A stretch of DNA of 64,000 nt from Patescibacteria group bacterium (GTDB lineage Bacteria > Patescibacteriota > Dojkabacteria > GCA-002793355): positions 317,716-381,715 of the forward strand of contig BOKM01000001.1 in NCBI GenBank assembly GCA_016860985.1, in the 5' to 3' direction. The notes beneath the pieces were generated by a model that was given only the letters and a program-made list of their open reading frames with translations, made no database searches and was not told where the DNA came from. Positions 5,398-62,904 of the stretch are shown here, in pieces (positions within the stretch are counted from its first letter, which is position 1; every line of letters starts with the position of its first letter). A program made the position numbers and the translations under genes.

Positions 5398-6525
5398 TTA
5401 TTTAATATCGCTCGCAAGCGCCTCCCATGATTTTCTTTCTTCTTTGGACACCTTTTTTGGTATCACAATCTTGACTGCCAACTTTATATCTCCTTTTGTA
5501 GAGGAACCTAGTTTATAAGCTCCCATCCCTTTAGCAGTAAGGGTATCCCCCGGTTGAGTTCCTGCCGGAATCTTTAAATCATATTCTCCGTATGGTGTTT
5601 TAAGTGTAACAATTCCACCGAGTACTGCCTTAGCAGGATGCAGCTCTAGTTCGCTAAAAAGCGTTTCTTTATCTCTTCGATACTGCAAAAACTGCGACAC
5701 ATTTAACGTCATATATAAATCACCTGCTGGTCCGTTATGACGACCGACATTGCCTCCACCTCTGAATTTGAGTGTTAGTCCATCGTATGAACCTTGTGGG
5801 ATTTTAACATCGAGATGAACTTTTTCTGCGACTCTTCCAGTCGTTTTACACTGCGTGCAGGGATCGGAAATAGTTCGCCCTGTGCCTTGACATGTAGGAC
5901 AAGGAGATTGATACATAAAGTTTCCAAGTAGGGTTGCCTGCTGATATTGCACCATGCCAGACCCACCACATTTTACACAGCTAGTTGTCTTCTGCGACAA
6001 ACTGCCGCTCCCTTTACAAGACTTACACGTTCCGTAACGCTCATATTCAACGGTTACTTCACCACCCTTGTTGGCTGTATCAAATTGTATTTTTATTGTT
6101 ACTTCGCGGTCTTCTCCCTGTTCAGCTTCAACTGACTTTCGAGTGTTGCGCCTTGAAGCACCACCCATGCCTGCTCCAAAAAAATCACCGAACACACTAC
6201 CAAAAAGGTTTGACATATCGCCCATATCAAAAACCTGCGAATACTGAGACCAATCTCCACCCATGGGACTTCCGCCTTGAGTCCCTCCAAAGCCGCCTTT
6301 TACGCCGGCTTCTCCGTACTGGTCGTACATCTGGCGTTTTTGCGTATCCGACAAAATTTCGTATGCCTCACCTACTTCCTTAAATCTCTCTTCCGCATCC
6401 TTTTCTTTGTTGCGATCCGGATGATATTTAGCTGCGAGTTTTCGGTAGGCACGTTTAATTTCATCTTGGGTTGCGTTTTTTTCGACACCCAATACCTCAT
6501 AATAGCTTTTTCCTGATTTTGACAT
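5398..6525 (-). CDS. dnaJ: molecular chaperone DnaJ
   Basis: J-domain [34 protein letters not shown]-rich region, four CxxCxGxG zinc-finger repeats ([32 protein letters not shown]). Confidence 0.9.
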
Positions 6526-6552
6526 AGTTTCTTCCTTTCTTTATACTAGACA

Positions 6553-7356
6553 ATGCTCCCGATTCTACCAAAAATCGACACCTCACTACAAGAAACAGTA
6601 CCGCAACTGCCCAAACGACGTGTAAAAGCTCCACAAAAGCAGAAAAAGAGCACCGAATCTTCGACAAAGACTATCGCTCCATTTCTTCCAAAATTGTTTT
6701 TAATTATTGGGGTTGTACTTATATTTTCGCAAATCATCCCACTCGCCTTATCGGTTTACAATGGTTATTCACTTTCAGCAAACAGCTCAACCTTTCTACC
6801 TGTTTCGGAATCTTTCATACAAAAATTAACCAATGTTACTTATATTGATCCCGGAGCTGCGTGGTTTGAAGCAGTAGTCGCACAAAATCATGCGCCTCAG
6901 ATAGACCTCAACTACAGCAAGACTATGAAAATTTCGATTGACAACGCGAACATCTCACGTGTAAACCTTGCAGCGAATATCCCCGGTAATAACCCCGCTA
7001 TTTATGACGAAGCGTTAAAGCATGGTGTTGCTCACTTGAAAGGTACCTCTGTACCCGGTGACCCTGGATTAAGCGTGATTTATGGGCACAGTGGTGTAGC
7101 AGGTTTTTTTACTGGTAGAGGCAGCCCCCAGATAATTTTTTCTCGCCTTGATACCGTATCCATTGGTGATACAATGTCCATAGATAGGGACGGCAAAGAA
7201 CTACGTTACGTCGTTTCAGGAAAGAAAATTGTCGAGCCCCAGGACCTGACATTTATGAGCGAGCAAACAGATAAGGAGCGAGCGATTCTCCTCACTTGTT
7301 GGCCACTCGGTATCGGGACTAAAAGATTAATTATTATTGCTGATCGACTACAATGA
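6553..7356 (+). CDS. sortase family transpeptidase (N-terminal membrane anchor)
   Basis: TM segment LFLIIGVVLIFSQIIPLAL; catalytic His in IYGHSG; TLxTC-type cysteine motif AILLTCWP; conserved Arg near C-terminus. Its TGA stop overlaps the start of the next gene (ATGA). Confidence 0.7.
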   Translation: MLPILPKIDTSLQETVPQLPKRRVKAPQKQKKSTESSTKTIAPFLPKLFLIIGVVLIFSQIIPLALSVYNGYSLSANSSTFLPVSESFIQKLTNVTYIDPGAAWFEAVVAQNHAPQIDLNYSKTMKISIDNANISRVNLAANIPGNNPAIYDEALKHGVAHLKGTSVPGDPGLSVIYGHSGVAGFFTGRGSPQIIFSRLDTVSIGDTMSIDRDGKELRYVVSGKKIVEPQDLTFMSEQTDKERAILLTCWPLGIGTKRLIIIADRLQ

Positions 7357-8720
7357 ATAAAAAAGGACCAGTTATCGCATTATTATTTATAGGTATTGTT
7401 GGCATCGTTGTTGTAATTGCCATTTTGGTATCACGAGTACTCAATAACGGGGGAAATAATAATACAGGAACTATTGAACTCAACTACATGGGCTTGTGGG
7501 ATGTTCCAGAAGTTTATGAACCACTCATCCAAGAATATCAAGAAAAACACCCTAATATAAAGATTACCTATACAAAGGCAAGCTTTATCAATCAAAACAA
7601 TTTTTCTTATAAAGGTGTTTACCAAACCAATGCAGAAGAAAGAATAACTAGTGGTGCCGTCGATATTGTCCGTGTTCATCAAACATGGATTCCAAAATTA
7701 CTTCCACAGCTTTACGCCGCACCTTCAGACGTTATGACAGGGACTCAAGCAAAAGAGCTTTACTACCCAGCTGTCTACGAAGCAATAACGACCTCTAACA
7801 ACCTTGTTTACGGCGCGCCACAAATTGTTGACGGTCTTGTGCTCATTTACAACAAAGAATTATTTACGCAAGCACAACTTGACCCAAGAATATCAACAAA
7901 AGACTGGGATGTTACACTTCAAACTGCAAAAAAACTTACAAAGCGAAATGCAAACGGAACAATTGCGGTGGCAGGTATTAACATGGGGAGTGTTTCCAAT
8001 GTAAGAAGCTCACCAGAAATTCTCTTAACAATGCTCACCCAATCTGCAATTCCTGTAGTGAATGTCGATGCAGGAACAGGAAAAATTCAAGCAGATTTTG
8101 CAAGCCCAGAAGGAGCTGCAGCGATTAACCGCTTCTTTGAATTTGCTAATCAGAAGAATGATAAGAAAGAAGATATTGGTGCGTGGTCATCTCGAATGGA
8201 AGATGATTTACAAGCGTTTGCAAACGGCCGACTTGCCATGCTTATTGCCCCAAGCTGGAGAGTAATCGATCTTGTAGGAATGAACTCTGCATTACAGTTT
8301 GATACATTACCACTTCCTGTTCTTCCTGGAGCAAACCCCAATGTTCCGCAATACCTCTCTTCCTTCTGGATAGATGTTGTTTCTAAAAAATCAAAAAATC
8401 CAAAGGAAGCATGGGCTTTTCTTAAGTGGCTCGGTGAACCAGAACAACTTAGACGAGTCTACAAAGTGCAGACAGAAAAGCGACTCATTGGGAACCCCTA
8501 TCCTCGAAAAGACATGGCAACAGAACAAGCAAGTGCACCTTACATTAGCGCTGTATTAGAAATGGCGCCAAAGATGAAAAGTTGGCCCTTATATGACTAC
8601 GGTGTATGGGAAGAAACCTTTCGAAAAGGCTTGCTGGAATTTGAAGACCGTGGCGGTATTACAGAAGCAGATTTAAAGAAAATACAGGATCAGATAAACA
8701 ATTTAACTTTGAAACGCTAG
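7353..8720 (+). CDS. extracellular solute-binding protein (ABC-transporter family 1 type), orphan with no permease or ATPase nearby
   Basis: N-terminal TM anchor, about 450 aa. Family-1 SBP-like segments FANGRLAMLIAPSWR and SKNPKEAWAFLKWLGEPEQ. Confidence 0.65.
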   Translation: MNKKGPVIALLFIGIVGIVVVIAILVSRVLNNGGNNNTGTIELNYMGLWDVPEVYEPLIQEYQEKHPNIKITYTKASFINQNNFSYKGVYQTNAEERITSGAVDIVRVHQTWIPKLLPQLYAAPSDVMTGTQAKELYYPAVYEAITTSNNLVYGAPQIVDGLVLIYNKELFTQAQLDPRISTKDWDVTLQTAKKLTKRNANGTIAVAGINMGSVSNVRSSPEILLTMLTQSAIPVVNVDAGTGKIQADFASPEGAAAINRFFEFANQKNDKKEDIGAWSSRMEDDLQAFANGRLAMLIAPSWRVIDLVGMNSALQFDTLPLPVLPGANPNVPQYLSSFWIDVVSKKSKNPKEAWAFLKWLGEPEQLRRVYKVQTEKRLIGNPYPRKDMATEQASAPYISAVLEMAPKMKSWPLYDYGVWEETFRKGLLEFEDRGGITEADLKKIQDQINNLTLKR

Positions 8721-8723
8721 CCC

Positions 8724-11700
8724 GTGAGAAAAGAAAGAACAAGACAGTGGTTAACACTCTTCTCCTTATTTATGTTATTGGTACTGCCAACTGCGATTGT
8801 CGGTTTCAATAATTTCTCAACCTTTGTTAATCGTGCCTTTGCAAAGCCTTTCCAGAAACAAGAGGCAACCTTTTTAGTGCAATCAGAGAGTTCTGCTGGT
8901 ATTGCAACAGGCTCAAAATTCTCCTTAAAGCTTACAGCAGCCACACCAAAAACACTTCCGCTTAAACATTTTGCTGCTTTTATTGAGTTTGATAAATCAA
9001 AAGTTGATATCTCTTCGGTTCAACTTCAAAATACAAAACTACTTAAAGTAGTTGCCTACCAAAATGGCTATCTTGTGCTTCCAGTAAATGCTGCTGTACC
9101 CACAAACTTTAGAGAGCTTTACCCCGAGACCTGCGCAGCAAACGATTCTTGTGATTTTAGCCAGTTTTCCGCAGGAACTGTCGACCTCGTTATAAATGGA
9201 GTTCTTCTTTCCGCACTTACTGAACAACAGCGCCCAATTAAGGTTACAATGCTAGGAGCCTCAGAAACAAGTACCGTTGCAATTTGGAACGAAAAAATTA
9301 TTCTCCCTTCGCTTAATTTGGGAGAGTTTGTAAAAAACAACGCACCGAGTTTTACCTCAGAACCTCAACCGTATATTCACGAAGCAAAGCTATTTGAGTA
9401 CGATATCTCAATCGCAGACAAAGATAGTGACCCTGTCACTCTATCTCTCGAATGCCCAACAACTGCATTCTGTGACAAATTGCAAACAGCACCAGAAGGT
9501 ATCACACTCGAAGGTTCAACTCTGCGATGGGATACTCCTCTCTACGCTGAATCACCTTATACCATTACTGTTTATGCGAACGACGGAAAGAGTGTATCTA
9601 CACAAACCTTTTCTTTGAAAGTTCTCCAAACAGATACATCGTACTTCTCCTGCACGTTTACCCCAGCACTGTCGGTAAAAATCCTTGATTATAGAGTAGA
9701 AACGCCTTTAATCATATTTGCTCAAAGTTCTGCAGATTTATCGAAAGCCGTAGTAACACTTGAAAAAGATGGTGTCACAGAAAAAACCTTTACATACGAC
9801 TTTACTCCCAGCAAAAAAACAATTATTCTTGATCAATCAAGTAATCCCGCACTTACCTACAAGTTTAAAGAAGGTAACTACACTGGTACCGCTACCTTTA
9901 CCTCTACAAGTGGTGCTAACTTTACCTGCGAACTAACCAACCCAACCGTTTCCTTTACCTCTTTACTGCGCCAAGCATTTATTCACACTGTCGAAAATAT
10001 AGTAGAGGTTGTGCAAGCACAGGGGCTTACCGTTGGAACAAACACTGCGCCGACCTTTACGTCAGACCCAATGGCACCTGCAACAAGTGGAGGGTCGTCA
10101 CCATCAGTCTCTTTCGTATACGGAACGCCGTACAGTTTTACACTTAAAGCGCAAGATAGCGATGGTGACCCGTTGCAACATACAATTGTTGCAAAACCAG
10201 CATGGGCATCCGTTGCAGTTTCATCTAGCACAAGTACCACGGGGCCATCGAACTATAATATCCAATTTACTGGCACTCCGGCAGAAAAACACGCAGGCAG
10301 CAACCTTTTTTCAGTTAGTATCAATGATGGTTATGGTCACTATATTACACGCACATGGGTAATCAACGTGGATTATCCAGATAACGACATCCCGAGAGTA
10401 ACCATTATTGAACCCGTAAAAGCAGTAACGCGATATCAAGGCAGCCCTTTTCTTCTCAAGTGGGAGGTTGAAGACAGACACCAAGTAGTCTCCTTTAAGA
10501 TTCAATACACAAAGAATCTTTCTTCAGGATCAAAAACGACTTACAACAACAATGTTTCGTATAAGACACGTGGGCTAACGATTAACACCTCTTCCATGCC
10601 TCCTGGTGACTACTACTTCATTGTTTCTGCAGTTGACGGATTTTCTCCACCAGCAACAGGTGCCGGATATACAGCAATGGTTAGAATACTCCCACCTAAA
10701 CCGAAACCATCTCCAACACCAAAGCCAACCAGCACACCCTCACCAACCGCTACTCCGACGGCAACGTCAACGGTAACTGCTTCACCAACACCCACACCTA
10801 CCCCCACTGCAACAGAAGAACCAACTCCTGAACCAGACGAAATTACGATTCAAATAACAACACCAAAAAATCAAGCTCAAATTGCACCAAATGAGTTCCA
10901 AGCAGTCATAACACTCGCTGCCTCAAAAGAAGGTGAACTTCAAAAATCTGGAATAACCGTTCGATTAGATACAGAAGTTATTACTGATAAATTTACCTTT
11001 TCAGCAGAAAAAGGAAAAACCCTTACCGCGAGTTATAAACCCACAACTTTATTAGAACCGGGAATACACGAACTTATCGTTACAGCAAAAGACAGTAAAG
11101 GTAAAGAGAAAGAAGCCAAAGTCTCCTTTACTGTTCTTTCAGACACTCAACCTACAGATAATAACGTAAACTTTTTGGGGTTTGATATTCCAAAACACTT
11201 ATATACGCTCTTTGTAGCGGCGCTCATACTCATCATTATTCTTATTCTGCTTCCGCTTATACTTTACTTCGCTTTTAGAAACTCAGACAAAGAATCCCCC
11301 CCTCCAAACCGCCGATTACCCGCTGCTCCAACCGGTTCAAGTGCACCACCATCACTAAAAACTCCTGGTACTGCCTTTGCTCAACCAGTCATTACCAAAG
11401 CTAACGAAGGTCCAGCATTCCAGCCCGTAGTAATACCAAAAAATGATATTCCGACGGAAGCGCCAAAGATTACACCTCCAGAAACGTTACAAAGCTTTGT
11501 TGCACAAAGTTCAATGAACGAAGCACAACAAAAAGCAGAGGGTAATCGAGTACCACAACAAGTCGCAGGACCTACGTTTACACCTCCCCCACCGGTGCAA
11601 CCAACTAAACCTTTTGTTCCAATGGTAAAAGAACAAAGTATTAAGCCAGCGACTTCGATAAAGAATGATCCACCACCACAAATAAGACCAACTCCATTTA

Positions 11701-12095
11701 CTCCAAAAGAGCAGTCCTCTCAGGAAGCACCAAAATCACCAACCTCCGGAGTTAACGTACCGAGCGCTTCCCCCCAACCGACACAAGTACAAGCACCAGC
11801 TCCCGCACAAAAAGCGCAACCTGTCCAAATGCCTAGAGTTGAGCAACAAGTTATGAACCAGAAGCCTGAACTTACGCCAAAAACTACAGTTCAGCTCCCA
11901 CCAACAATCCCTGGAAAAGTTGCAAGCACGCAGCCATCGAACGTAAAAATACCAGAACCAAAAACAGTGCCACCTATTCCATCAACTGTTTCCCAGCCAC
12001 CACAGGTGACTGCTATGCCAAAGCAACCAGCTTCACTCCCGATTCAAGCAAGCAATCTGCCACCAGAGTCACCCTCTTTACCAATCGGGAAATAG
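8724..12095 (+). CDS. large surface protein: signal anchor, Ig-like (putative Ig / cadherin-like) domains, Pro/Thr linker, TM helix, about 290-aa Pro/Gln-rich C-terminal tail
   Basis: 1123-aa ORF starting 4 nt after the SBP gene. Repeated NxAPxFTSxP...DxDxD motifs; PT-rich linker PKPKPSPTPKPTSTPSPTATPTAT; strongly hydrophobic LFVAALILIIILILLPLILYFAF near residue 830, followed by a proline-rich low-complexity tail. Confidence 0.7.
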   Translation: MRKERTRQWLTLFSLFMLLVLPTAIVGFNNFSTFVNRAFAKPFQKQEATFLVQSESSAGIATGSKFSLKLTAATPKTLPLKHFAAFIEFDKSKVDISSVQLQNTKLLKVVAYQNGYLVLPVNAAVPTNFRELYPETCAANDSCDFSQFSAGTVDLVINGVLLSALTEQQRPIKVTMLGASETSTVAIWNEKIILPSLNLGEFVKNNAPSFTSEPQPYIHEAKLFEYDISIADKDSDPVTLSLECPTTAFCDKLQTAPEGITLEGSTLRWDTPLYAESPYTITVYANDGKSVSTQTFSLKVLQTDTSYFSCTFTPALSVKILDYRVETPLIIFAQSSADLSKAVVTLEKDGVTEKTFTYDFTPSKKTIILDQSSNPALTYKFKEGNYTGTATFTSTSGANFTCELTNPTVSFTSLLRQAFIHTVENIVEVVQAQGLTVGTNTAPTFTSDPMAPATSGGSSPSVSFVYGTPYSFTLKAQDSDGDPLQHTIVAKPAWASVAVSSSTSTTGPSNYNIQFTGTPAEKHAGSNLFSVSINDGYGHYITRTWVINVDYPDNDIPRVTIIEPVKAVTRYQGSPFLLKWEVEDRHQVVSFKIQYTKNLSSGSKTTYNNNVSYKTRGLTINTSSMPPGDYYFIVSAVDGFSPPATGAGYTAMVRILPPKPKPSPTPKPTSTPSPTATPTATSTVTASPTPTPTPTATEEPTPEPDEITIQITTPKNQAQIAPNEFQAVITLAASKEGELQKSGITVRLDTEVITDKFTFSAEKGKTLTASYKPTTLLEPGIHELIVTAKDSKGKEKEAKVSFTVLSDTQPTDNNVNFLGFDIPKHLYTLFVAALILIIILILLPLILYFAFRNSDKESPPPNRRLPAAPTGSSAPPSLKTPGTAFAQPVITKANEGPAFQPVVIPKNDIPTEAPKITPPETLQSFVAQSSMNEAQQKAEGNRVPQQVAGPTFTPPPPVQPTKPFVPMVKEQSIKPATSIKNDPPPQIRPTPFTPKEQSSQEAPKSPTSGVNVPSASPQPTQVQAPAPAQKAQPVQMPRVEQQVMNQKPELTPKTTVQLPPTIPGKVASTQPSNVKIPEPKTVPPIPSTVSQPPQVTAMPKQPASLPIQASNLPPESPSLPIGK
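10686..10839 (+). repeat. low-complexity CCA/ACN-rich tract encoding the Pro/Thr linker of the surface protein
   Basis: Visible ccaaca/ccgac-type reiteration. It generates a mirror GVGVG ORF on the opposite strand. Confidence 0.5.
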
Positions 12096-12164: not shown

Positions 12165-13976
12165 ATGAAACAGATGACATATCTTGAGGTTAGAAATGCG
12201 TACTTAGACTTTATGAAAAGTAAAGGTCACCAAGAGGTGCCAAACGCTTCTCTCGTTCCAGAAAATGACCCAACTCTTTTGTTTGTAAATTCGGGAATGT
12301 TTCCACTTGTTCCGTTTCTACTTGGCGAGACACACCCTCTCGGCACACGCCTTGTTAATGTACAGCGTTGTGTAAGAACAGAAGATTTGGAAGAAGTTGG
12401 CGATATATCTCACGCCACTGCCTTTGAAATGATTGGCAACTGGTCTTTAGGTGACTATTTTAAAGAACAAGCATTGCAACAGACCTACGAGTTCTTTATT
12501 GAACGTCTTGGCATTCCTGTAGAACAAATATATGGTTCTGTATTTGAAGGAGACGAAGATGCGCCACAAGATACAACTTCAATTGAACTGCTAAAAGCAA
12601 TATTCAAAAAATATGGAATAGATGCAAAGGCCGGAAAGAATGAACGTATTCAGCTCTATGGTAAAAAGAAAAACTGGTGGGGGCTCGCCGGTGGTGGACC
12701 TTGCGGTACAACATCAGAAATTTTTTACGACACCGGAAAAGAACCTTGTGGCCCAGATTGTCACATAAACTGTGATTGCGGTAAGTATATCGAAATTGGA
12801 AACAACGTCTTCATGGAGTTTCTTAATAAAGACGGAAAGTACACTCCACTCGCGAAGCAAAACGTAGATTTTGGAGGCGGATTAGATCGTATTGTCATAT
12901 TACTTCAAGGAGTAACCAGCTACCACGAAACCGATATTTACAAACCGATTGGTGATTATGTCCGAAGCATTGCAAAGGTACAAAACACAAAATCAGAGAG
13001 AATTATCATTGATCACGTTAAATCAGCTACCTGGATAATAATGGATGGCGTACTTCCTGGAAAAACCGAAAAAGAGTATGTTCTTCGCAGATTAATCAGA
13101 AGGGCAATCCGTCACGGAAAAATACTTGGAATCGAAAAGCCCTTCTTGCGCGAGGTTGGAGAAGTAGCAGTTGATCAGTTTGCTCCTGTTTACTCTCAAC
13201 TGGCTGAACAAAAGGACCACATTCTCGAAGTTCTTGCCCAAGAAGAAACAAAATTCCTCAATACACTAAAAGGTGGCATGACTCAAGTAGCAAAACTGGT
13301 CGAGCAGCACAAAAATAGCGAATTTACCAATGCACAGGGAGAAAGTTTTTCGTTATACGAAAGTTTTGGATTTCCTCCCGAAATGTTCCTTGAAGAGTTA
13401 ACAAATGCGGGTATTTCTGTTTCTCAAGACCTCTTTTGGCAAAACCACAAAGCAAAGGCAATGGAACATCAAGAAAAATCACGTACTGCAACTCAAGGAT
13501 TGTTTAAAGGTGGACTCGCAGATACATCTGAAAAATCAACTCATTATCACACGACTACACACTTACTCTTAGCTGCACTGCGAAAGATTGTTGGAACTCA
13601 TATTTACCAAAAAGGGAGCAATATTACTCCCGAAAGGCTACGCTTTGACATTCCAAATCCAGAAAAACTCACACCAGAACAGATTAAAGAAGTAGAGCTA
13701 CTTATAAATCAAAAGATACAAGAAGGCTTACCCGTTGATTTTGAAGAAATGCCAAAAGATAAAGCACTTGAGCTAGTACCTTTTGCCGCTTTCGAAGGGA
13801 AATACGCCGATGTTGTCAAAGTTTATACGGTAGGAACAAAAGAAGCACCATTTTCTCAAGAACTTTGTAATGGACCACATGTAAAAAATACTTCTGAAAT
13901 ATCTGGCACCTTTCGCATCACGCAGCAGGAAAAGATAGGTAATGGAATCTTAAGAATAAAAGGAGTATTACAATAA
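12165..13976 (+). CDS. alaS: alanine--tRNA ligase, short form (603 aa) lacking the C-Ala domain
   Basis: N-terminal AlaRS signature EVRNAYLDFMKSKGH...LFVNSGM; editing-domain zinc motifs HTTTHLL and CNGPH. Followed by ruvX-mltG, as in Firmicutes. Confidence 0.85.
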   Translation: MKQMTYLEVRNAYLDFMKSKGHQEVPNASLVPENDPTLLFVNSGMFPLVPFLLGETHPLGTRLVNVQRCVRTEDLEEVGDISHATAFEMIGNWSLGDYFKEQALQQTYEFFIERLGIPVEQIYGSVFEGDEDAPQDTTSIELLKAIFKKYGIDAKAGKNERIQLYGKKKNWWGLAGGGPCGTTSEIFYDTGKEPCGPDCHINCDCGKYIEIGNNVFMEFLNKDGKYTPLAKQNVDFGGGLDRIVILLQGVTSYHETDIYKPIGDYVRSIAKVQNTKSERIIIDHVKSATWIIMDGVLPGKTEKEYVLRRLIRRAIRHGKILGIEKPFLREVGEVAVDQFAPVYSQLAEQKDHILEVLAQEETKFLNTLKGGMTQVAKLVEQHKNSEFTNAQGESFSLYESFGFPPEMFLEELTNAGISVSQDLFWQNHKAKAMEHQEKSRTATQGLFKGGLADTSEKSTHYHTTTHLLLAALRKIVGTHIYQKGSNITPERLRFDIPNPEKLTPEQIKEVELLINQKIQEGLPVDFEEMPKDKALELVPFAAFEGKYADVVKVYTVGTKEAPFSQELCNGPHVKNTSEISGTFRITQQEKIGNGILRIKGVLQ

Positions 13977-17861: not shown

Positions 17862-18281
17862 CTACCTAAGTTGGAATGGATTCCCATTAATTCCATACCA
17901 CTCGCCCTCCGATACGACGATAACATACCGATAGGACAATTCATCTTGTTTTAGTAAAGAAACCGAATGAGATGTTGATGGTGATTCTCCATTCGCAGAA
18001 AGTACCTTATATGGCAATGATGAGAAATCTGCATATGATTTGCCCAGCAAAATAAACCCTGTGCAAGCTTCGCGTGTTTCCCAAGTTATCTTCATTCGTC
18101 CGACGTCATCTGTATCTATCGTGAATTGCGAGGGCTCACAAGGCTGTTTGACGGTATTGTCTGAACTTACTAAATACTCTTGTTCTCGTACGTATTTTAC
18201 CCACAAAAATGCCATTATTAAGGGAATTAGCAATGATAAGACTACGCCAATTAACGCAATTTTTCTTAGTAACTGCTTCAT
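17862..18281 (-). CDS. membrane-anchored/secreted small protein with FN3-like (purple-acid-phosphatase-N-like) motif
   Basis: N-terminal TM helix IALIGVVLSLLIPLIMAFLWV; motif MKITWETREACTGFILLGKSY. Confidence 0.4.
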   Translation of the reverse strand: MKQLLRKIALIGVVLSLLIPLIMAFLWVKYVREQEYLVSSDNTVKQPCEPSQFTIDTDDVGRMKITWETREACTGFILLGKSYADFSSLPYKVLSANGESPSTSHSVSLLKQDELSYRYVIVVSEGEWYGINGNPFQLR

Positions 18282-19006
18282 TATCTGTGACCGCGTTCAA
18301 TAACGATGCCCTTTGGTAATTTACTTCGGTTGCCCATCGCGTTTTTCATTATTTTTACCAAGATAGAACCTACGGTAAAAATCAGCACAATACCTACAAC
18401 TAAAAGAAGATATGTTTGTTGTCTATCAGACAAAAATGGTTGAGCTGTCGCTACTGTAGATTCTCCTAATACTTCTTCTAGCTCCGAAGTTGTTGCGTCT
18501 GGCAATACCTGAGCATTTCTTGTTGGAATTACTACACTATTAGGATGGAAGGGATCTTGCCAAATAGCGACTGTTTTTGCACCTTTAACATCTGCTTCTG
18601 GGGTATCAATCGTTACAGTGAACGTTTGATCTTGCACATCACCGGCAATAGTTGCTGCTCGAACGGTAATTGTGAATACTCCACCAACAGAAGGGACCGT
18701 GCCGGTTAACTGTTGTGTCTCAGGAATCCAACTGACCCAATCTGGCTTTGCGAGTACAGATAGTGTCACTTCACTACCTGAAAGTGAGGTCGCTAACACT
18801 TTATAGACAAAGGTTGAATCTGCAGAAACAAGGATTGGAGGGACTGAAATATATCGAATATCGTCGACCACAGCGACCTCAGTAGGTGTAGGTGTAACTG
18901 TTGCTGTATTTTTTGTGGGATTAAGCACTTGCTGAAGCAACATCGGTAAACCAAACGTTACCATAAGAATAAGTAAAACGACGAAAAACTTCAGACCTGA
19001 CCTCAT
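18281..19006 (-). CDS. cell-surface protein with Ig-like domain and C-terminal TM anchor
   Basis: Signal/TM at N-terminus and a Thr/Pro spacer. Motif LAKPDWVSW resembles AKPAWASV of the 1123-aa protein. C-terminal hydrophobic helix plus basic tail. Confidence 0.45.
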   Translation of the reverse strand: MRSGLKFFVVLLILMVTFGLPMLLQQVLNPTKNTATVTPTPTEVAVVDDIRYISVPPILVSADSTFVYKVLATSLSGSEVTLSVLAKPDWVSWIPETQQLTGTVPSVGGVFTITVRAATIAGDVQDQTFTVTIDTPEADVKGAKTVAIWQDPFHPNSVVIPTRNAQVLPDATTSELEEVLGESTVATAQPFLSDRQQTYLLLVVGIVLIFTVGSILVKIMKNAMGNRSKLPKGIVIERGHR

Positions 19007-23317: not shown

Positions 23318-24136
23318 ATGTATGAACACGCAATTCCACAGAACATCATGGAGTATGAGTTTGAGCTTTTTGCAGGCTTAACTCTCAAGCAATTTATCTA
23401 CGTCGCAGTATCGGGCGGGTTTGCCTTTGGTTTATACGAATTAAACAGAGCTGGCCTTTTTCCCGCTTTCTTTGCATGGATTACTATTCCAATAATCCTT
23501 TTGGTTGGCGTCACACTTGGCTTAGGCTCGTATCAAAAACGAACAATGGAAGATTGGTTCAATGCATTTGCCAAAGCAAATGCGCTAACCCTTCGCCGAG
23601 TATGGAAAAAAGATACAAAAGCAGTTACTCACGATAATTTTCATGCGACAAAACCGCACTCGCTTCCTTCGTACCTTGCGGTGTATTTTATGAACCAAGA
23701 CGAGTTTACGCGATTAATGCGCAACAAAGGGGCAATAGAGGATTCTCATGAACCTACCACTATCGTACAGCCACTTCTTCACGCAGAGAATATCCCAACC
23801 ATTCAAGAGGTTATTCAACTTACTCAAGCTAATGCCTCAGATTTTGCGGAACCTGGTGTAACGCTTCCAGCAATACCAAACACGATTGCCTTCAAGTTAC
23901 AAGAAGATAATCTTCCAATGGAAGGTGTAGTCGCCTATGTAAAAGATGCCAATATGAGCGTCGTCGGTGCGCTTCGAAGTAACAAAGATGGCATTGTTTA
24001 TTTTAATCAAGGATTTCAGAACGGAGATTACGAAATCGAATTTCAATCGCCAGAAGCTGCAACGTTTCCGAAAGTGAGAGTGCAATTTCAAGGTCTCACT
24101 TACCCACTTATTAATATATCACCAACAGGTTCATAA
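23318..24136 (+). CDS. VirB3/PrgI-like membrane protein with C-terminal extracytoplasmic domain (T4SS-like module)
   Basis: Two adjacent N-terminal TM helices (FIYVAVSGGFAFGLY and FFAWITIPIILLVGVTLGLG). Lies immediately upstream of the VirB4-like genes. Confidence 0.4.
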   Translation: MYEHAIPQNIMEYEFELFAGLTLKQFIYVAVSGGFAFGLYELNRAGLFPAFFAWITIPIILLVGVTLGLGSYQKRTMEDWFNAFAKANALTLRRVWKKDTKAVTHDNFHATKPHSLPSYLAVYFMNQDEFTRLMRNKGAIEDSHEPTTIVQPLLHAENIPTIQEVIQLTQANASDFAEPGVTLPAIPNTIAFKLQEDNLPMEGVVAYVKDANMSVVGALRSNKDGIVYFNQGFQNGDYEIEFQSPEAATFPKVRVQFQGLTYPLINISPTGS

Positions 24137-24138
24137 TT

Positions 24139-24768
24139 ATGGCACTCGGTCCAGGGCAAAGCCCCATAACTCAAGGTACGCAAGATATTCTTGAAGTAGC
24201 GGACATCATGAATGATTTGCTCATTACTCGAAATGGAACCGTTTGTTTAATCTTAAAAACTTCTTCAGTAAACTTTGACCTTTTATCCGAAGACGAGCAA
24301 GACATTAAAATTGCATCCTTCGGTTCTATGGTTAACTCACTCGACTTTCCTCTACAAATTCTTATTGAAACAAAGAAAATTAACATCAGTAAATATGCTG
24401 ACTTTCTAGATACAATGGACACTCCAGACCTTAGCCCCGGACTAAAGCGCCAATTTACGGTTTATAAACAGTTTATAAGAAACCTTATTACAAATAAGGA
24501 AATCCTCGATAAACGTTTTATGATTGTGATTCCCTATAGAACAGGTACCTCTGTTGCGCCAAACGCAACAATCGAGCAAAAACAGAAGCTAATCGAGAGC
24601 GCGACAGGCTATTTGTATCCAAAAAAATATCACGTGATAAAAATGTTAAAAGGCATGTCGCTTGAAGCTGAGCAGATGTCGAACAGCGAAATTGCCAAGT
24701 ATCTTTATTCAGTTTACAACCCAGCGGACTCAATCCGTTTAGATGATTTACCTCAAATATACGTATAA
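24139..24768 (+). CDS. VirB4 N-terminal-domain-like protein (first part of a split VirB4, or separate accessory)
   Basis: LLITRNGTVCLILKTSSVNFDLLSEDEQD resembles the N-terminal region of VirB4/TrbE ATPases. Its stop TAA is followed 1 nt later by the ATG (24770) of the ATPase gene. Confidence 0.45.
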   Translation: MALGPGQSPITQGTQDILEVADIMNDLLITRNGTVCLILKTSSVNFDLLSEDEQDIKIASFGSMVNSLDFPLQILIETKKINISKYADFLDTMDTPDLSPGLKRQFTVYKQFIRNLITNKEILDKRFMIVIPYRTGTSVAPNATIEQKQKLIESATGYLYPKKYHVIKMLKGMSLEAEQMSNSEIAKYLYSVYNPADSIRLDDLPQIYV

Positions 24769-26638
24769 TATGGCACTCCTCGACTTATTCAATAAAAAAA
24801 AACCAACTCAAACTGCAGAACAAGGAGCACAACCTCAAGTTGAGCAGCAGCAATCAGATCCAAACCCTGACTTTAGTATTCAGGACCTGCTTGCTCCGCA
24901 ATATTACGAGATTGATTTTAATCACGTGCAGATTAACAAGCGTTATTACAGAATTCTCATGATTACGGACTTTCCTCGTGTAGTCCGTTCTACATGGCTT
25001 TCTCCACTAGTAAACTTTGAATCTTCACTTGCAATCAGTACGTTCTACTACATCGTTGATTCAGACGAAGTTATTGATAAGCTCAAGAAAAAAATTGCAG
25101 AACTCGAAGCAACTCTTTCGACACAATACGAAAAAGGTGTAGTTCTTGATCCTAAGAGTAAAGTCGCCTATCAAGATGCCCAAGAACTTATCGACAATGT
25201 TGCATCAGGCAAGGAAAAATTCTTTAACATGGGAATGTATATTCGTCTTAATGCAGACGATCTTACAACACTTGAGAATATTTCTAAGAATGTTATCTCG
25301 ACACTCAAGGCAATCGGACTTTCTGCAGTCCCACTTACGCTAAAAATGCACGACGGATTCGATACAACACTTCCATATGCACTCGACAAAATATATCGTG
25401 TTCGAAACATGGATACGACCTCTATTGCAATGACCTTTCCCTTTGTTACGTCGGACCTTACCATGGACAGAGGAATTCTTTACGGCGTCAACATGCACAA
25501 CAACAGTATGGTTATTTTCGATAGGTTTAGCATGCCTAACCTAAACGAAGTAGTTTTCGCGACTTCTGGTGCAGGAAAGAGCTATTTTGTAAAACTTGAA
25601 GCCTTGAGATATTTGCTTACAGGTACGCAAGTGATGATTATCGACCCTGAAAACGAGTATGAAAAACTTGCTAAATCGGTAGATGGCGAATACATTACCT
25701 TTACTCAAGACGAAGGCGCAAAAATTAATCCCTTTGAGTTCCTAAAGTCTTCAAAAGATGGCGTAAGAAACGTCCTTCGCGACAAAGTATTAAGCCTCCA
25801 CTCGTTTATTAAATTACTCCTTGGAGAACTAACAAATGTCGAAGTTTCAATTCTCGACCGCGCCTTTATCCTTACGTATAACGAAAAAGGCATCAACAAC
25901 GACCCTGAAACATGGAATAACAAGCCACCACTGCTCGAAGATTTGTATAAGATTCTCAAAGGTATGGCAGAACCTGAGGCGCGAGCACTTTCAGGCCGGT
26001 TAGAAAAGTATGTTTTTGGAAGTGCTGCCGGCGTCTTTAACCAAGAGACAAATATCGACATCAAGAACAAATTTACAGTATTTAGCATTCGTGACCTTCA
26101 AGATGATCTCCGTCCAATCGCCATGTATATGGTGCTCGATTTCATCTGGACTCGAGTACGTGAAGATATAAGACCAAGAATCCTTGTTGTCGACGAAGCC
26201 TGGACCATGATGCAATACGAAGATTCCGCACGCTTTATTTACGGTATCGCAAAGCGAGGCCGAAAATATTACCTTGGGCTAACGACTATCAGTCAAGATG
26301 TTGATGAATTCTTAACGTCAAAATATGGAAAAGCGGTAGTAACCAACTCAAGCTTGTCGCTTCTACTTAAACAGAGCCCTGCTGCGGTTGATTTAGTCGT
26401 AAAAACCTTTAACCTCTCTTCCGGAGAGCGATCATTCGTATTGAGCGCTAAAACAGGAGAAGGGCTATTCTTTGCCGGAAGAAGCCATGTAGGAGTTTCA
26501 ATTATTGCAAGTAGAGCCGAACATAGACTTATCACCTCAAATCCAAAAGAACTCGCAAAAATGAAATCACAGAGTACAGAATTTTCTGAGGACGATATTT
26601 CAGAGGGAGCCTTAGTTTTTGAGCAAGGAAGTGAATGA
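24743..26638 (+). CDS. VirB4/TraE-like type IV secretion ATPase (probable true start ATG at 24770)
   Basis: Central VirB4 segment RYYRILMITDFPRVVRSTWLSPL; Walker A FATSGAGKSYF; Walker B ILVVDEAWTMM; sensor LTTISQ. Confidence 0.8.
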   Translation: MIYLKYTYNMALLDLFNKKKPTQTAEQGAQPQVEQQQSDPNPDFSIQDLLAPQYYEIDFNHVQINKRYYRILMITDFPRVVRSTWLSPLVNFESSLAISTFYYIVDSDEVIDKLKKKIAELEATLSTQYEKGVVLDPKSKVAYQDAQELIDNVASGKEKFFNMGMYIRLNADDLTTLENISKNVISTLKAIGLSAVPLTLKMHDGFDTTLPYALDKIYRVRNMDTTSIAMTFPFVTSDLTMDRGILYGVNMHNNSMVIFDRFSMPNLNEVVFATSGAGKSYFVKLEALRYLLTGTQVMIIDPENEYEKLAKSVDGEYITFTQDEGAKINPFEFLKSSKDGVRNVLRDKVLSLHSFIKLLLGELTNVEVSILDRAFILTYNEKGINNDPETWNNKPPLLEDLYKILKGMAEPEARALSGRLEKYVFGSAAGVFNQETNIDIKNKFTVFSIRDLQDDLRPIAMYMVLDFIWTRVREDIRPRILVVDEAWTMMQYEDSARFIYGIAKRGRKYYLGLTTISQDVDEFLTSKYGKAVVTNSSLSLLLKQSPAAVDLVVKTFNLSSGERSFVLSAKTGEGLFFAGRSHVGVSIIASRAEHRLITSNPKELAKMKSQSTEFSEDDISEGALVFEQGSE

Positions 26639-58320: not shown

Positions 58321-59268
58321 TTAATTTGCTTTAGGCGCGTCTGTGCCCAAATAATTATCAATAACCTTCTCCATATCTGCATAAGGCCAAGCACCAACAT
58401 AGGCCTTCCCAACACAAGTAGTTGGATTATCTGCAGCGAGTTTACACACCGCGAATGCCGGAGTCCCAAAATTTTGAGCTCCGAACTTATCACCCCACGG
58501 TGTTTTGATTTCTTTGTTAATTTGCTCCTGAACACGATCTATTGCTACAAAATCACGTTTTTGCAAGCAAGTAGTAAAATCAGAAGTGTTAAGCCCTAAG
58601 TCTTTTGCAATATTTATTAATGATGATTCTTCAGAACCTTTATTATCTATTCCGAGTCCATTACCGCTTGTTAATTCAAAAATCTTTTTGTGGTAATCAA
58701 ATCCTCTGCCTTGTTCTGCTGCACAATAAAACGCAAGCGTTTCGTTTGTTGCTGCCGGTTTATGGCTTGCAACAGCGATGTATGGGGCATATGCAAACTG
58801 CATGATGCCAGAATCAATATACTTTTTCTTAATCTGATCAAAGCTTGATGGCTTTCCATCTCCGTAACCGCTTGTAAAAAGTTTACAGTAAGGGCATTCA
58901 AAATCGCTAAACTCTACAAACATATACTTGGCACCCTCTTTCTTTTCTATAGTAAGGTATGAGGTCGAAACGGTTACATCAACCAAACCTTGCTCTAACG
59001 TATCTGGAGGTGTTTTAGGCGTGTTGTCTGAACTTTTCTTACCGAAAAAGGTGAATAAACCATACCCAACAATACCTACTGCGAGTACAAGAAGTACAAG
59101 CATGGGAAGACTAAGCTCAAGTTCTACTGCATCCATTGACTTTTGGGGAGGTGTCACATCTGTCGGACGCAATTTACTTTGTTCCCGAAATTTCGAGGTT
59201 TCTGGTAATGCGTTGGTGTGAATAGACATGGCTGAGGGGATTATACACTGCGATTGTGACGAAGTCAA
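58321..59268 (-). CDS. DsbA-like thioredoxin-fold thiol:disulfide oxidoreductase, membrane anchored
   Basis: TM LVLLVLAVGIVGYGLFTFF, then CPYC active site (EFSDFECPYCKLF). Confidence 0.7.
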   Translation of the reverse strand: MTSSQSQCIIPSAMSIHTNALPETSKFREQSKLRPTDVTPPQKSMDAVELELSLPMLVLLVLAVGIVGYGLFTFFGKKSSDNTPKTPPDTLEQGLVDVTVSTSYLTIEKKEGAKYMFVEFSDFECPYCKLFTSGYGDGKPSSFDQIKKKYIDSGIMQFAYAPYIAVASHKPAATNETLAFYCAAEQGRGFDYHKKIFELTSGNGLGIDNKGSEESSLINIAKDLGLNTSDFTTCLQKRDFVAIDRVQEQINKEIKTPWGDKFGAQNFGTPAFAVCKLAADNPTTCVGKAYVGAWPYADMEKVIDNYLGTDAPKAN

Positions 59269-61119: not shown

Positions 61120-61492
61120 CTATACCCCAAATCAGGCAGTAACTCAATAAAGTTACCCAATAGCTTACAAGTGTAAATACATGCAAGACGAGCAAAAGTA
61201 TTGCCGCAACAGTTACTGTAAAAAAAGTAGTCCATACCCACGTTCCACTTTCTTCGCGCGATTCCTTTTTAACCCAAGAGACAATTGAACGAAAAAGTGA
61301 AGCAACAATAGCAAAAATAGCAGCTACGAGTAAGCTGACCAAGGAAATAACAATAAATATATTACCAATTTGGGGGACGCTATTTTGTGAATATGGAAGA
61401 AAATTGCCTGTTGCGAGCAGTGACCAGAAAAAATAACCGACTATCCCACCAACCGCACCAATAGAAGCAGTTGCCTGCTGCTGTGTAATCAT
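61043..61492 (-). CDS. small polytopic membrane protein
   Basis: Three or four hydrophobic helices. 3' end overlaps the next gene by 77 nt. Confidence 0.35.
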   Translation of the reverse strand: MITQQQATASIGAVGGIVGYFFWSLLATGNFLPYSQNSVPQIGNIFIVISLVSLLVAAIFAIVASLFRSIVSWVKKESREESGTWVWTTFFTVTVAAILLLVLHVFTLVSYWVTLLSYCLIWGIVEYGKYKARNRYKKYLEASSGAREK

Positions 61493-61968
61493 TAACGATT
61501 AAACAAGCTTATAAACTCTAGCCATGCAGCCTTCATGCCACCATGGCGCCTAATTTCGACGAGCGAAATGATCATAAGGAAAATGGTCAAAAAGGTTGAC
61601 ACGGTACACCATGAACAAAAAGCCTTAATAGGTACTATCTCTAGATATAAGAAATAAAGACTCGCAAGAATTCCAATCCCCGACATTTTCCATGTCGCAA
61701 TTCGCAAAATTGGGCGGTCATCAATCAACCGAAAAACAGTAATAAGCGCGTTCACACCATAAAAAGCGAGCCCATAGGCAGCAATTGGTACTGCAAAAAT
61801 CTTTGAGTATGGACTATGTAACACAATTTCACAGCCGCCGCCCGTAAGGCAACCAATAACTTTTTGGGTAATTGCGGTATGCCACATAAAAATTGACAGT
61901 GCCATTCCGGCAATATTAACGAATAGCATCCATTGCGTAAGTGTAGGCGTAACAAGCTTTATCTTCAT
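61492..61968 (-). CDS. vitamin K epoxide reductase (VKOR)-family membrane oxidoreductase
   Basis: Loop Cys pair CLTGGGC and TM-embedded CxxC (AFCSWCTVS), in a 4-5 TM scaffold of 158 aa. Adjacent to DsbA-like genes. Confidence 0.6.
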   Translation of the reverse strand: MKIKLVTPTLTQWMLFVNIAGMALSIFMWHTAITQKVIGCLTGGGCEIVLHSPYSKIFAVPIAAYGLAFYGVNALITVFRLIDDRPILRIATWKMSGIGILASLYFLYLEIVPIKAFCSWCTVSTFLTIFLMIISLVEIRRHGGMKAAWLEFISLFNR

Positions 61969-62007: not shown

Positions 62008-62904
62008 CTATTTGCCTAATTGCTCTTCAATAATGTTCTTGAACGCAACAATTGGGTACGCTCCTTCTACCAATCTGCCCTGCAAAACTCCGTCTTTTAC
62101 CACACCAATCACAAAGGTTGGTGTACCAAGCCCTTGGGTTACACCTTTTTGTACAATATCTTGCTCGAATGTAGAAAGTTCTGCGCTGTCATCTTTAACG
62201 CGATTTGCAGCCTCGGTAGTCTTTATACAATTCTTAATTTTGTTTGAATCGACTCCCAATTCACCAAATAGTGCATAAAATTGTTTGTCTTTGATGTTTA
62301 CCACAGGTTGATTATTATCGTCGTAAGCATTTTGCGTAATCGTGCTGCTTTTGGCAAAGAAAAGATTGTTAAAGCTATACATTTTTTCTGCACTGTAGAG
62401 TGTTTCTACACAATAGGCCGCTTGTGCAGAAATAGTTGCTGCAGGGTTGTGGAAGGCAAGAGGATAGTGTTTGTATACGAATTGAACCTTCCCAGTCTCG
62501 ATATAATCTTTATTGATAGTTGCAAAACTTTCATCATGGAACTTCTTACAGTAAGGGCAGACCAAATCGCTAAATTCCAAGACAACGACCTTTGCACTTT
62601 TATCGCCAAGTGTTGGGCCACCCTTAAATGGAATACTCACTTCTGCAAATTCATTAGCAGCAAACGTTTGAACGGTTGGAGTTGGTGTTGCACCGGCGCC
62701 TGTAGGGGTTACTGGTCGAGCCTTTAATCCGAAATAGAGTGCTGATCCTATTCCTGCAGTAAAAATGATTACACTCAACAAAATTGCCCATGGAAGAGAC
62801 AATCCTTTAAGATTTAACGTTACATATTCTGAAGAATCATTTTTTTCTACTGACTTTACTTCTCTTTTCTCATCTACTACTTTGGTCATGCCACGAGATA
62901 TCAA
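62008..62904 (-). CDS. DsbA-like thioredoxin-fold thiol:disulfide oxidoreductase, membrane anchored
   Basis: TM AILLSVIIFTAGIGSALYFGL and CPYC active site (EFSDLVCPYCKKFH). Confidence 0.7.
   Translation of the reverse strand: MISRGMTKVVDEKREVKSVEKNDSSEYVTLNLKGLSLPWAILLSVIIFTAGIGSALYFGLKARPVTPTGAGATPTPTVQTFAANEFAEVSIPFKGGPTLGDKSAKVVVLEFSDLVCPYCKKFHDESFATINKDYIETGKVQFVYKHYPLAFHNPAATISAQAAYCVETLYSAEKMYSFNNLFFAKSSTITQNAYDDNNQPVVNIKDKQFYALFGELGVDSNKIKNCIKTTEAANRVKDDSAELSTFEQDIVQKGVTQGLGTPTFVIGVVKDGVLQGRLVEGAYPIVAFKNIIEEQLGK

Follow-up and report, generated by a model that had tools for sequence, protein, structure and literature searches.

The window analysed here, a stretch of 64,000 nucleotides from a Patescibacteria group bacterium (contig BOKM01000001.1, positions 317,716 to 381,715), contains a gene, below called X, for a predicted surface protein in which a transmembrane (TM) helix is followed by a long tail rich in Pro and Gln. 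The explanation that we favour, and hold to be somewhat probable, is that X is an adhesin-like receptor held by its TM helix, with a flexible tail that works as a tether and offers short motifs to partners in the cytoplasm. On this view the tail is not a spacer built of repeats, and it does not serve sorting. X is a real open reading frame (ORF) of 1123 amino acids (aa), with a GTG start and the stop included in its coordinates, and a chance ORF or an assembly artefact can be dismissed, since the same TM-plus-tail architecture recurs in 13/13 homologues and in dozens of distant relatives. No ORF of at least 80 aa was found to overlap the tail region on either strand. The layout of the gene, where Ig stands for immunoglobulin and AF2 for AlphaFold2, is as follows.

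8724..12095, plus strand: gene X, predicted membrane-anchored multi-Ig surface protein, 1123 aa (ORF; 13 full-length homologues)
8724..8846, plus strand: N-terminal Sec-type signal or signal anchor, aa 1-41 (basic n-region and hydrophobic core; cleavage putative)
8847..9338, plus strand: distal domain D1, aa 42-205, predicted cohesin-/pilin-/MSCRAMM-like β-sandwich with the invariant pair Cys137/Cys143
9339..9938, plus strand: domains D2-D3, aa 206-405, two Ig-like β-sandwiches with invariant Cys244/250 and Cys310/402 (alignment, AF2, Foldseek)
10056..10694, plus strand: domains D4-D5, aa 445-657, Big_9/cadherin-like and Ig/FN3-like, common to all distant relatives (Pfam, AF2, profile search)
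10695..10841, plus strand: Pro/Thr-rich extracellular linker, aa 658-706, predicted disordered (AF2)
10842..11192, plus strand: membrane-proximal Ig-like D6 and β-hairpin, aa 707-823, ending in the conserved juxtamembrane FLGFDIPKH (weak Big_13, AF2, alignment)
11208..11276, plus strand: TM helix, aa 829-851, with an invariant mid-helix Pro (LLP) (hydropathy, alignment, AF2)
11277..12092, plus strand: Pro/Gln-rich, non-repetitive, Cys-free disordered tail, 272 aa, probably cytoplasmic (composition, AF2)

Architecture of the protein

A Kyte-Doolittle scan gave two hydrophobic segments in X, at aa 10-28 and aa 829-851. The second is the C-terminal helix LFVAALILIIILILLPLILYFAF, with a 19-mer maximum of 3.49. 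The original prediction, made from the letters of this DNA, had described a single, very hydrophobic helix; the hydrophobicity was borne out, but the helix is not alone, as the other segment follows MRKERTRQ at the N-terminal end. The helix was also said to come after the Pro/Thr linker, and the order is right, although an Ig-like domain (aa 707-805) and a β-hairpin lie in between. The long Pro/Gln-rich tail is there too, 272 residues rather than the 290 proposed, and at 24% of the protein it makes up the quarter that had been estimated.

The full-length AF2 model, built on a 14-sequence family alignment, shows five confident β-sandwiches at approximately aa 43-200, 205-305, 308-405, 445-552 and 556-657, where the predicted local distance difference test (pLDDT) of the blocks is mostly 70-93. 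They are followed by a disordered linker (aa 658-706), a sixth β-sandwich (aa 707-805), a short β-hairpin (aa 814-823) and a long helix (aa 824-853) that holds the TM segment. From aa 854 to aa 1123 the pLDDT is ~30, with a lone helical turn at 923-926. Foldseek searches with the whole model matched strings of Ig, FN3 and cadherin domains, and the fold of D1 resembles cohesin, Gram-positive pilin and MSCRAMM domains. The Pfam match to Big_9 (PF17963) at aa 461-546 is marginal, 24.6 bits as compared to a gathering cut-off of 23.6, and the AF2 model supports a β-sandwich fold in this region. Cadherin_5 and Big_13 were matched below threshold, NCBIfam gave only a sub-threshold match to 'tandem-95 repeat', and a sequence search of the PDB with the family profile gave no relative at E<=0.01. 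Judging by the modelled folds, we propose with moderate confidence that the ectodomain is an adhesin-like or surface-layer-like binding module.

Membrane topology

The N-terminal signal of X starts with a basic n-region, MRKERTRQ; a hydrophobic core that contains the invariant LLVLPTAIVG follows at aa 10-28, and after it comes VNRAFA|KP, where a signal peptidase could cut. A basic and hydrophobic signal of this kind is kept in 54/58 relatives, and in the 58 family members the 15 aa before the hydrophobic segment hold on average 4.5 Lys or Arg and 0.2 Asp or Glu. For a signal peptide it is unusually conserved: the start is rich in Lys and Arg, and the core (L-x-I/L-P) has a Pro that is invariant. 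Very divergent relatives (P0002-P0148) share a D-(I/T)-R-(N/S)-x-A motif located 6-12 aa after the core (VNRAFA in X), and cleavage may take place after VNRAFA or at this motif. The unusual conservation, including the invariant Pro, hints that the segment is retained. It could be a signal type specific to the lineage, or a second TM helix that stays in the membrane and pairs with the C-terminal helix. Whether the segment is cleaved or retained, the tail ends up inside.

X has six Cys (137/143, 244/250 and 310/402), all of them invariant and all located before the TM helix. The number of Cys in the ectodomain is even in 56/58 relatives, and the tails lack Cys in 58/58. The net charge of the tail is +10 as compared to -14 for the ectodomain, and in the clade of X Lys and Arg are commoner after the TM helix than before it. 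Use of the positive-inside rule at the C-terminal helix as a decisive topology test was given up, since it is supportive in the clade of X and indecisive in the family as a whole. At the far end of the window there is a gene for VKOR (61492-61968, minus strand), and two more for DsbA- or thioredoxin-like membrane-anchored proteins (62008-62904 and 58321-59268, both minus strand). The VKOR and DsbA-like genes represent an extracytoplasmic disulfide machinery, which fits the invariant Cys pairs of the ectodomain. Such machinery has been noted for the candidate phyla radiation (CPR) in connection with sortase pathways (PMC6744442).

From the Sec-type signal, the surface-type folds, the Cys pattern, the VKOR/DsbA genes and the flanking charges in the clade of X, we strongly infer that the N-terminal ~800 aa would be located outside and the 272-aa tail in the cytoplasm. 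This is the orientation that the original prediction had preferred, with the N-terminus outside and a cytoplasmic tail.

The tail and its motifs

The tail (aa 852-1123) consists of 22.4% Pro, 10.3% Gln, 8.8% Ser and 8.5% Thr, has a net charge of +10 and is devoid of Cys and Trp. It had been called a low-complexity polyproline sequence; the composition is indeed biased, but the sequence is neither repetitive nor polyproline, as no 5-mer recurs and the longest Pro run is PPPP. Tandem Repeats Finder gave no tandem repeats in the tail DNA, and the variation in copy number that characterises a wall spacer was not seen. The only array that the program reported in X is a weak 12-nt repeat of 2.1 copies in the Pro/Thr linker, at 10783-10807. 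The tail combines predicted disorder and biased composition with rapid, indel-rich evolution and conserved islands, and by the model it is predicted to be an intrinsically disordered region (IDR).

Nowhere in the window is the GC skew more negative (-0.245) or the AT skew higher (+0.22) than in the region 10001-12000. This is caused by the CCN (Pro), ACN (Thr) and CAA (Gln) codons of the Pro/Thr linker and the tail, and the skew is thus a compositional effect of gene X and not a replication signal.

The mean column conservation falls from 0.73 for the TM helix and 0.65 for the ectodomain to 0.32 for the tail. Between strains in the same 90% cluster every indel is located in the tail; these indels of 1-4 aa are the only length differences between strains of at least 90% identity, which contradicts the repeat expansion that had been anticipated for a wall spacer. 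When X was compared with P0002, the closest gene available, the nonsynonymous divergence (dN) was 0.12 in the ectodomain and 0.43 in the tail overall, but within the tail the motif islands had a dN of 0.15 and all other positions one of 0.52. Even in this comparison the synonymous sites are saturated (proportion of synonymous differences, pS, 0.72-0.82), and the contrasts are therefore in dN and not in dN/dS.

The islands are four motifs, M1-M4, which occur in a fixed order: LKTPxxSF, ALxSFVAQ, PPTIP and LPPESPSLP. Their occurrence was compared with composition-preserving shuffles.

11355..11378, plus strand: M1, LKTPGTAF, aa 878-885, at a fixed ~25 aa after the helix; in 12/13 tails, shuffle maximum 2
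11469..11507, plus strand: M2, ITPPETLQSFVAQ, aa 916-928, floating 73-148 aa after the helix; in 12/13 tails, shuffle maximum 2
11898..11912, plus strand: M3, PPTIP, aa 1059-1063, 21-168 aa before the C-terminus; in 13/13 tails, shuffle maximum 6
12057..12083, plus strand: M4, LPPESPSLP, aa 1112-1120, always 9-12 aa from the C-terminus; in 12/13 tails, shuffle maximum 2

M4 alone passes an unbiased 6-mer test with one mismatch allowed, being found in 8-10 of 11 tails while the shuffles gave at most 6. The sole helical turn that AF2 predicts in the tail lies in M2, a motif that is shifted in two homologues, yet kept. Each of the four motifs has a Ser or Thr next to a Pro. Since the disordered tail keeps four short motifs, their conservation fits partner binding, and with moderate confidence we suggest that the tail may bind partners via M1-M4, above all via its C-terminal tip.

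In distant clades other motifs are enriched in the tails. An amphipathic motif, xxELxxLAxxLxxE, was found in 29/39 and 8/11 tails, where the shuffle maxima were 9 and 4, and a Pro-rich terminal motif is enriched as well. The claim that M2 is the same element as this helix motif was dropped after a hidden Markov model (HMM) of xxELxxLAxxLxxE gave no M2 signal in the clade of X. A motif like the C-terminal peptide of FtsZ (DPYAFL) was also considered; it is absent from X and occurs in 5/39 members of one distant clade. A profile of the tail only, made from 13 tails, found nothing at E<=0.01 among 5.8 billion proteins, not one family member included; the low complexity weakens this test. None of the other proteins in the window was found to have the tail motifs or a similar tail.

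Homologues and retention of the tail

A word-indexed search gave 13 relatives of X, 1013-1204 aa long and 36-100% identical. The TM helix is present in all 13 of these close homologues, and it is followed by a tail of 166-335 aa that has 17-30% Pro, a net positive charge and no Cys. The organism of X is an ultra-small bacterium of Candidatus Dojkabacteria (WS6, CPR/Patescibacteria), as are the bearers of the matching genomes, which are ~0.9-1.1 Mb in size. A HMMER profile search of 1.84 billion representatives gave 3110 matches, many of which are giant multi-Ig proteins that match one generic domain. Approximately 60 proteins of 600-1150 aa have the C-terminal module of X, which consists of Big_9-like and Ig domains, linker, Ig domain, a conserved 'FGFxIPKR' junction, Pro-containing TM helix and long tail. 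The N-terminal domains of these distant relatives differ from those of X. With few exceptions they retain the TM helix, followed by a disordered, Cys-free tail of 80-545 aa, and length and disorder are kept across the clades despite a flip in composition (P0024-P0148 as compared to the clade of X).

Absence of the tail from orthologues, which the original prediction had named as the observation that would speak against it, was not found: the tail is retained, except in the lineage of P0023, where it is 13 aa long. In this lineage (L016, GCA_027002255.1) alaS is also absent between X and ruvX. It is a natural tail-less comparison genome for finding partners by phylogenetic profiling.

The family members that were found are all annotated as 'hypothetical protein', and full-text searches of the literature gave no description of the family, or of the cluster of sortase, solute-binding protein (SBP) and X described below. 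The parts, Ig-like surface domains, a TM anchor and a disordered tail, are individually ordinary, and only their combination is new: a long, motif-bearing, probably cytoplasmic IDR on a core, single-copy CPR surface protein, encoded in a sortase-SBP operon and lacking a canonical sorting motif.

The gene cluster and the sortase

X is the last gene of a tightly packed triad, the other two members of which are the following.

6553..7356, plus strand: sortase, first gene of the triad, overlapping the next gene by 4 nt (Pfam Sortase 1.9e-18; synteny)
7353..8720, plus strand: TM-anchored SBP (SBP_bac_1), second gene, with its stop 3 nt before the start of X (Pfam; synteny)

The sortase passes the general model TIGR01076, and class C is the nearest class, yet it falls below every class cut-off. 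Upstream of the triad, in the divergent direction, are DnaJ, NusA and IF-2, and downstream of X are AlaRS, RuvX, MltG/YceG, an LCP protein and holA. Collinearity over >20 kb was seen in five species-level genomes, which is weak evidence by itself. The distant relatives P0040, P0024 and P0065 are located in exactly the same genomic slot as X and are therefore positional orthologues, and the locus was present in every genome examined, with a single positional orthologue. In two of the loci (L009 and L014) the triad is followed by a glycosyltransferase and HrcA-GrpE-DnaK, and in a third (L015) both flanks have changed, with MutL upstream and a PilM/FtsA-like gene downstream. Because the triad is intact in three flanking contexts (L006-L009, L014 and L015), the sortase, the SBP and X appear to belong together.

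There is no ABC permease, ATPase or LPXTG substrate adjacent to the triad. The best match in the region to a sigma-70-like promoter, 11/12 positions (TTGACA, 17 nt, TATACT) at 6519-6547, ends 5 nt before the ATG of the sortase gene, which suggests that the operon transcript may be leaderless or nearly so. The site overlaps the start of the divergent DnaJ gene, and, counted together, promoter-like sites are no more numerous in the region than in shuffled sequence.

As the original prediction had noted, X has no sorting motif: the patterns [LIV]P.T[GASN], [LI][PA].T[GASN] and NP.TG have no match in the whole protein. Of the features that define LPXTG-class substrates, X has the N-terminal secretion signal, with a 19-aa core, and lacks both the pentapeptide and the short basic tail of ~5-10 aa. 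At the juxtamembrane site X has I-P-K-H, and the relatives conserve no Thr there. Two candidates were tried and rejected. The 'LPTA' in the N-terminal segment is replaced in relatives by IPIS, LPLF or IPLA, and only the Pro is conserved. The 'IPK' had been considered for its Lys, which might act as acceptor of the pilin type with a class C-like sortase, but in many relatives R, T, S or N stands in place of this Lys.

A model for X and its alternatives

In the explanation that we favour, a Sec-type N-terminal signal would export ~800 aa of X. The exported part would form a rod of six β-sandwiches, with a distal cohesin-/pilin-like domain that varies between clades and a constant membrane-proximal module that has the Pro/Thr linker inside it. 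One Pro-containing TM helix would stop the transfer and leave the last 272 aa in the cytoplasm, where the tail could drift freely apart from four short linear motifs, with LPPESPSLP held at a fixed distance from the C-terminus. M1-M4 would then dock one or more putative cytoplasmic partners. It is conceivable that binding by the ectodomain, to a host cell or to a wall component, is in this way coupled to the cell interior, or that X is positioned in the membrane. X would be made together with the sortase and the membrane-anchored SBP from a tightly packed, phylum-conserved cluster of three genes. The topology part of the original prediction is upheld, and the part that concerned signalling or scaffolding we grade as unproven. 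A wider reading, drawn by analogy, is that X in Dojkabacteria may be a single-copy, phylum-wide TM adhesion receptor with the logic of cadherins and IgCAMs, in which a distal binding domain that varies by clade sits on a constant Ig stalk, coupling host contact to the cytoplasm of an ultra-small episymbiont via the tail motifs and their LPPESPSLP tip, with the co-translated sortase and the orphan SBP as parts of the same machine; we offer this tentatively and consider it doubtful.

Several observations weigh against a motif-presenting tail on an adhesin-like receptor. Over the whole family the Lys and Arg residues flanking the C-terminal helix are more numerous after the helix in 25 members, equal in 14 and fewer in 19. 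Between strains the tail has 35-40 substitutions over 272 aa and the ectodomain 20-25 over 812 aa, which is ~5 times as many per residue. The motif patterns were written after the alignment had been seen, and the shuffles ignore relatedness and overstate the significance. The HMM of xxELxxLAxxLxxE misses M2 of X and gives only a weak signal in the second clade, and homology of the motifs across clades is unproven. The composition of the tail flips from basic and Pro/Gln-rich in the clade of X (+5 to +35) to acidic and rich in Ser, Thr, Asp and Glu elsewhere (down to -65), and at least one lineage can do without a long tail, as the 13-aa tail of the P0023 orthologue implies. The suggested adhesin role, finally, is based on resemblance of the modelled folds only.

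Some of these observations would also be expected if the tail were passive, a weakly constrained disordered spacer or 'entropic bristle' that only stabilises stop-transfer and membrane retention or keeps macromolecules off the membrane, with no specific partner and with motifs that are residual similarity of related sequences. The fast evolution with all indels concentrated in the tail is in line with this, and so are the range in length (80-545 aa) and net charge (+35 to -65) across the clades, the lineage that is almost tail-less, the absence of relatives at E<=0.01 for the tail-only profile, and the failure of the cross-clade motif HMM on the clade of X. We nevertheless regard a passive tail as unlikely. 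LPPESPSLP is held 9-12 aa from the C-terminus although the tails are otherwise ~30% identical, M2 is kept even where it has moved, and dN is ~3.5 times lower in the motifs than in the remaining tail. Other clades have a strongly enriched helix motif of their own (29/39 and 8/11 tails), and the ~1 Mb genome still retains a tail as long as 150-500 aa. A different role for the C-terminal end follows if X is a non-canonical substrate of the adjacent sortase, which would cut at the juxtamembrane I-P-x-x and join the ectodomain to the wall or to a protein. The junction would lie in the region of FLGFDIPKHLYT and NFLGFDIPKHLYT. In that case the TM helix and the tail would serve as an outsized sorting signal, or they would be a peptide left behind in the membrane that might itself take part in signalling. 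Dedicated sortases usually adjoin their substrates, as in class B and class C loci; the triad is conserved in three genomic contexts, its sortase is nearest to the pilus-type class C, and the motif, the hydrophobic helix and the basic juxtamembrane residues together resemble a cell-wall sorting signal. What makes sorting quite unlikely, in our view, is that X has no LPXTG-like pentapeptide and that position 4 of the motif has no conserved Thr or Ser, the variants being IPKH, IPKR, IPRR, IPTA and IPSS. The Lys of IPK is not universal either, hence there is no pilin-type acceptor lysine, and classical signals end in 5-10 basic residues and not in 272 aa with motifs conserved at the far C-terminus.

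The invariant helix-breaking Pro in both hydrophobic segments could point to regulated intramembrane proteolysis, where binding by the ectodomain triggers a Notch-like cut in the Pro-containing helix and the tail, with conserved motifs that could act after its release, is set free as a signal. This reading is graded as pure inference and seems highly improbable, as no protease gene is linked to the compared loci and Pfam gave neither a DNA-binding nor an anti-sigma domain in the tail. The inverted topology, finally, which had been offered as the alternative by the original prediction, would place the large N-terminal part in the cytoplasm and the Pro-rich tail outside, across the cell wall. 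Pro/Thr- and Pro-rich segments are typical of the wall-spanning regions of Gram-positive surface proteins, and the charges that flank the C-terminal helix are ambiguous in the distant clades. However, the N-terminal signal kept in 54/58 relatives would have to be ignored, the disulfide-type Cys pairs and the cohesin-/Ig-type folds would sit in the cytoplasm, and the arrangement is geometrically inconsistent if the N-terminal segment is inserted with its N-terminus inside. The tail has no repeats and no change in repeat number between strains, and a Pro/Thr linker is already present on the ectodomain side. We find this orientation barely credible.

Comparison with known systems

In LPXTG adhesins and pilins (MSCRAMMs, BcpA, RrgB) the protein is sorted by a motif that X lacks, while X has 272 aa with motifs after its helix; it is probably held by the TM helix and not by the wall, and apart from the weak Big_9 match there is no sequence homology. 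D1 is similar to the cohesin modules of cellulosomal and non-cellulosomal scaffoldins in fold only, at a sequence identity of 7-14%. It has no match to Pfam Cohesin, and we know of no dockerin partner for X.

A long intracellular tail rich in Pro had been called atypical for bacteria, which is fair but overstated. The P/Q domain of ZipA and the linker of FtsK are P/Q-rich cytoplasmic tethers, and the C-terminal linker and peptide of FtsZ and the tail of SSB combine a linker with a binding tip. By analogy, the tail of X is likewise a disordered, fast-evolving region of variable length with a short conserved element at its end. There is no homology to any of the four, the tether of X is placed on a surface protein and ends in a peptide motif, and its motifs are unlike the tips of FtsZ and SSB; resemblance to the FtsZ tip, DPY(A/S)FL, is seen in 5 distant relatives only. 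The mycoplasma cytadhesins (P1/MgpB, P110) are large membrane adhesins of type I, in which a single TM helix near the C-terminus is followed by a cytoplasmic tail rich in Pro that is thought to contact internal structures. The bacteria that bear them lack a wall or are reduced, and they live attached to other cells. The tail of X is several times longer, its ectodomain is a string of Ig-like domains, and the organism has a sortase together with LCP and MltG proteins. Neither Pfam nor NCBIfam gave a match of the P1/MgpB type for X, and there is no relative of that type in the PDB by sequence at E<=0.01.

Cadherins and IgCAMs (contactin, DSCAM, DCC) are the top Foldseek matches for the whole model of X, at 8-13% identity, as generic strings of Ig domains. 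They may share the logic of X, in which a rod of Ig or cadherin domains is joined by one TM helix to a disordered tail that carries short docking motifs, as an analogy and not by ancestry. To our knowledge there are no catenin- or FAK-like partners in bacteria.

How CPR/Patescibacteria recognise and hold their hosts is largely unknown, and X represents a second kind of candidate: a core, single-copy, fast-evolving surface protein of a whole CPR lineage, in which the distal domain is swapped between clades. Work on host attachment in the CPR has so far reportedly centred on type IV pili in Saccharibacteria (PMC12206443). If it is true that the tail binds cytoplasmic proteins, X would be among the few bacterial adhesins with coupling across the membrane based on short linear motifs, and M1-M4 are short, synthesisable peptide baits for finding the partners. 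If it is false, X remains of use as a marker of the phylum and is likely to help determine host range. Another question, posed by the invariant triad, is what role a sortase has when an LPXTG substrate is absent.

Other genes in the window

Another Ig-domain protein is encoded at 18281-19006 (minus strand). It has 241 aa with a He_PIG domain, a C-terminal TM helix and a basic tail of ~25 aa, lacks LPXTG and is syntenic in all genomes compared; in this region Ig proteins seem, as a rule, to be anchored by a TM helix. The gene at 62970-63704 (plus strand) encodes a protein of 244 aa that has its TM helix at the N-terminus, followed by a linker rich in Pro and Thr (22% Pro over 60 aa) and by a small domain; the only family match of this domain, to AbiEii, is below threshold. 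From its sequence it is probably another surface protein with a Pro/Thr linker.

The alanyl-tRNA synthetase that follows X (12165-13976, plus strand) has 603 aa, whereas a typical bacterial AlaRS has ~870 aa. It consists of the catalytic core and the tRNA_SAD domain and ends there, and the length is the same in all Dojkabacteria loci compared. At 23318-26638 (plus strand) there is a cluster that resembles type IV secretion or conjugation systems, with a PrgI-family protein, a 209-aa ORF that has no Pfam match and a VirB4/TraG-type ATPase. VirB4/TraG-like ATPases were also observed near the triad in three of the other loci (L008, L009 and L014).

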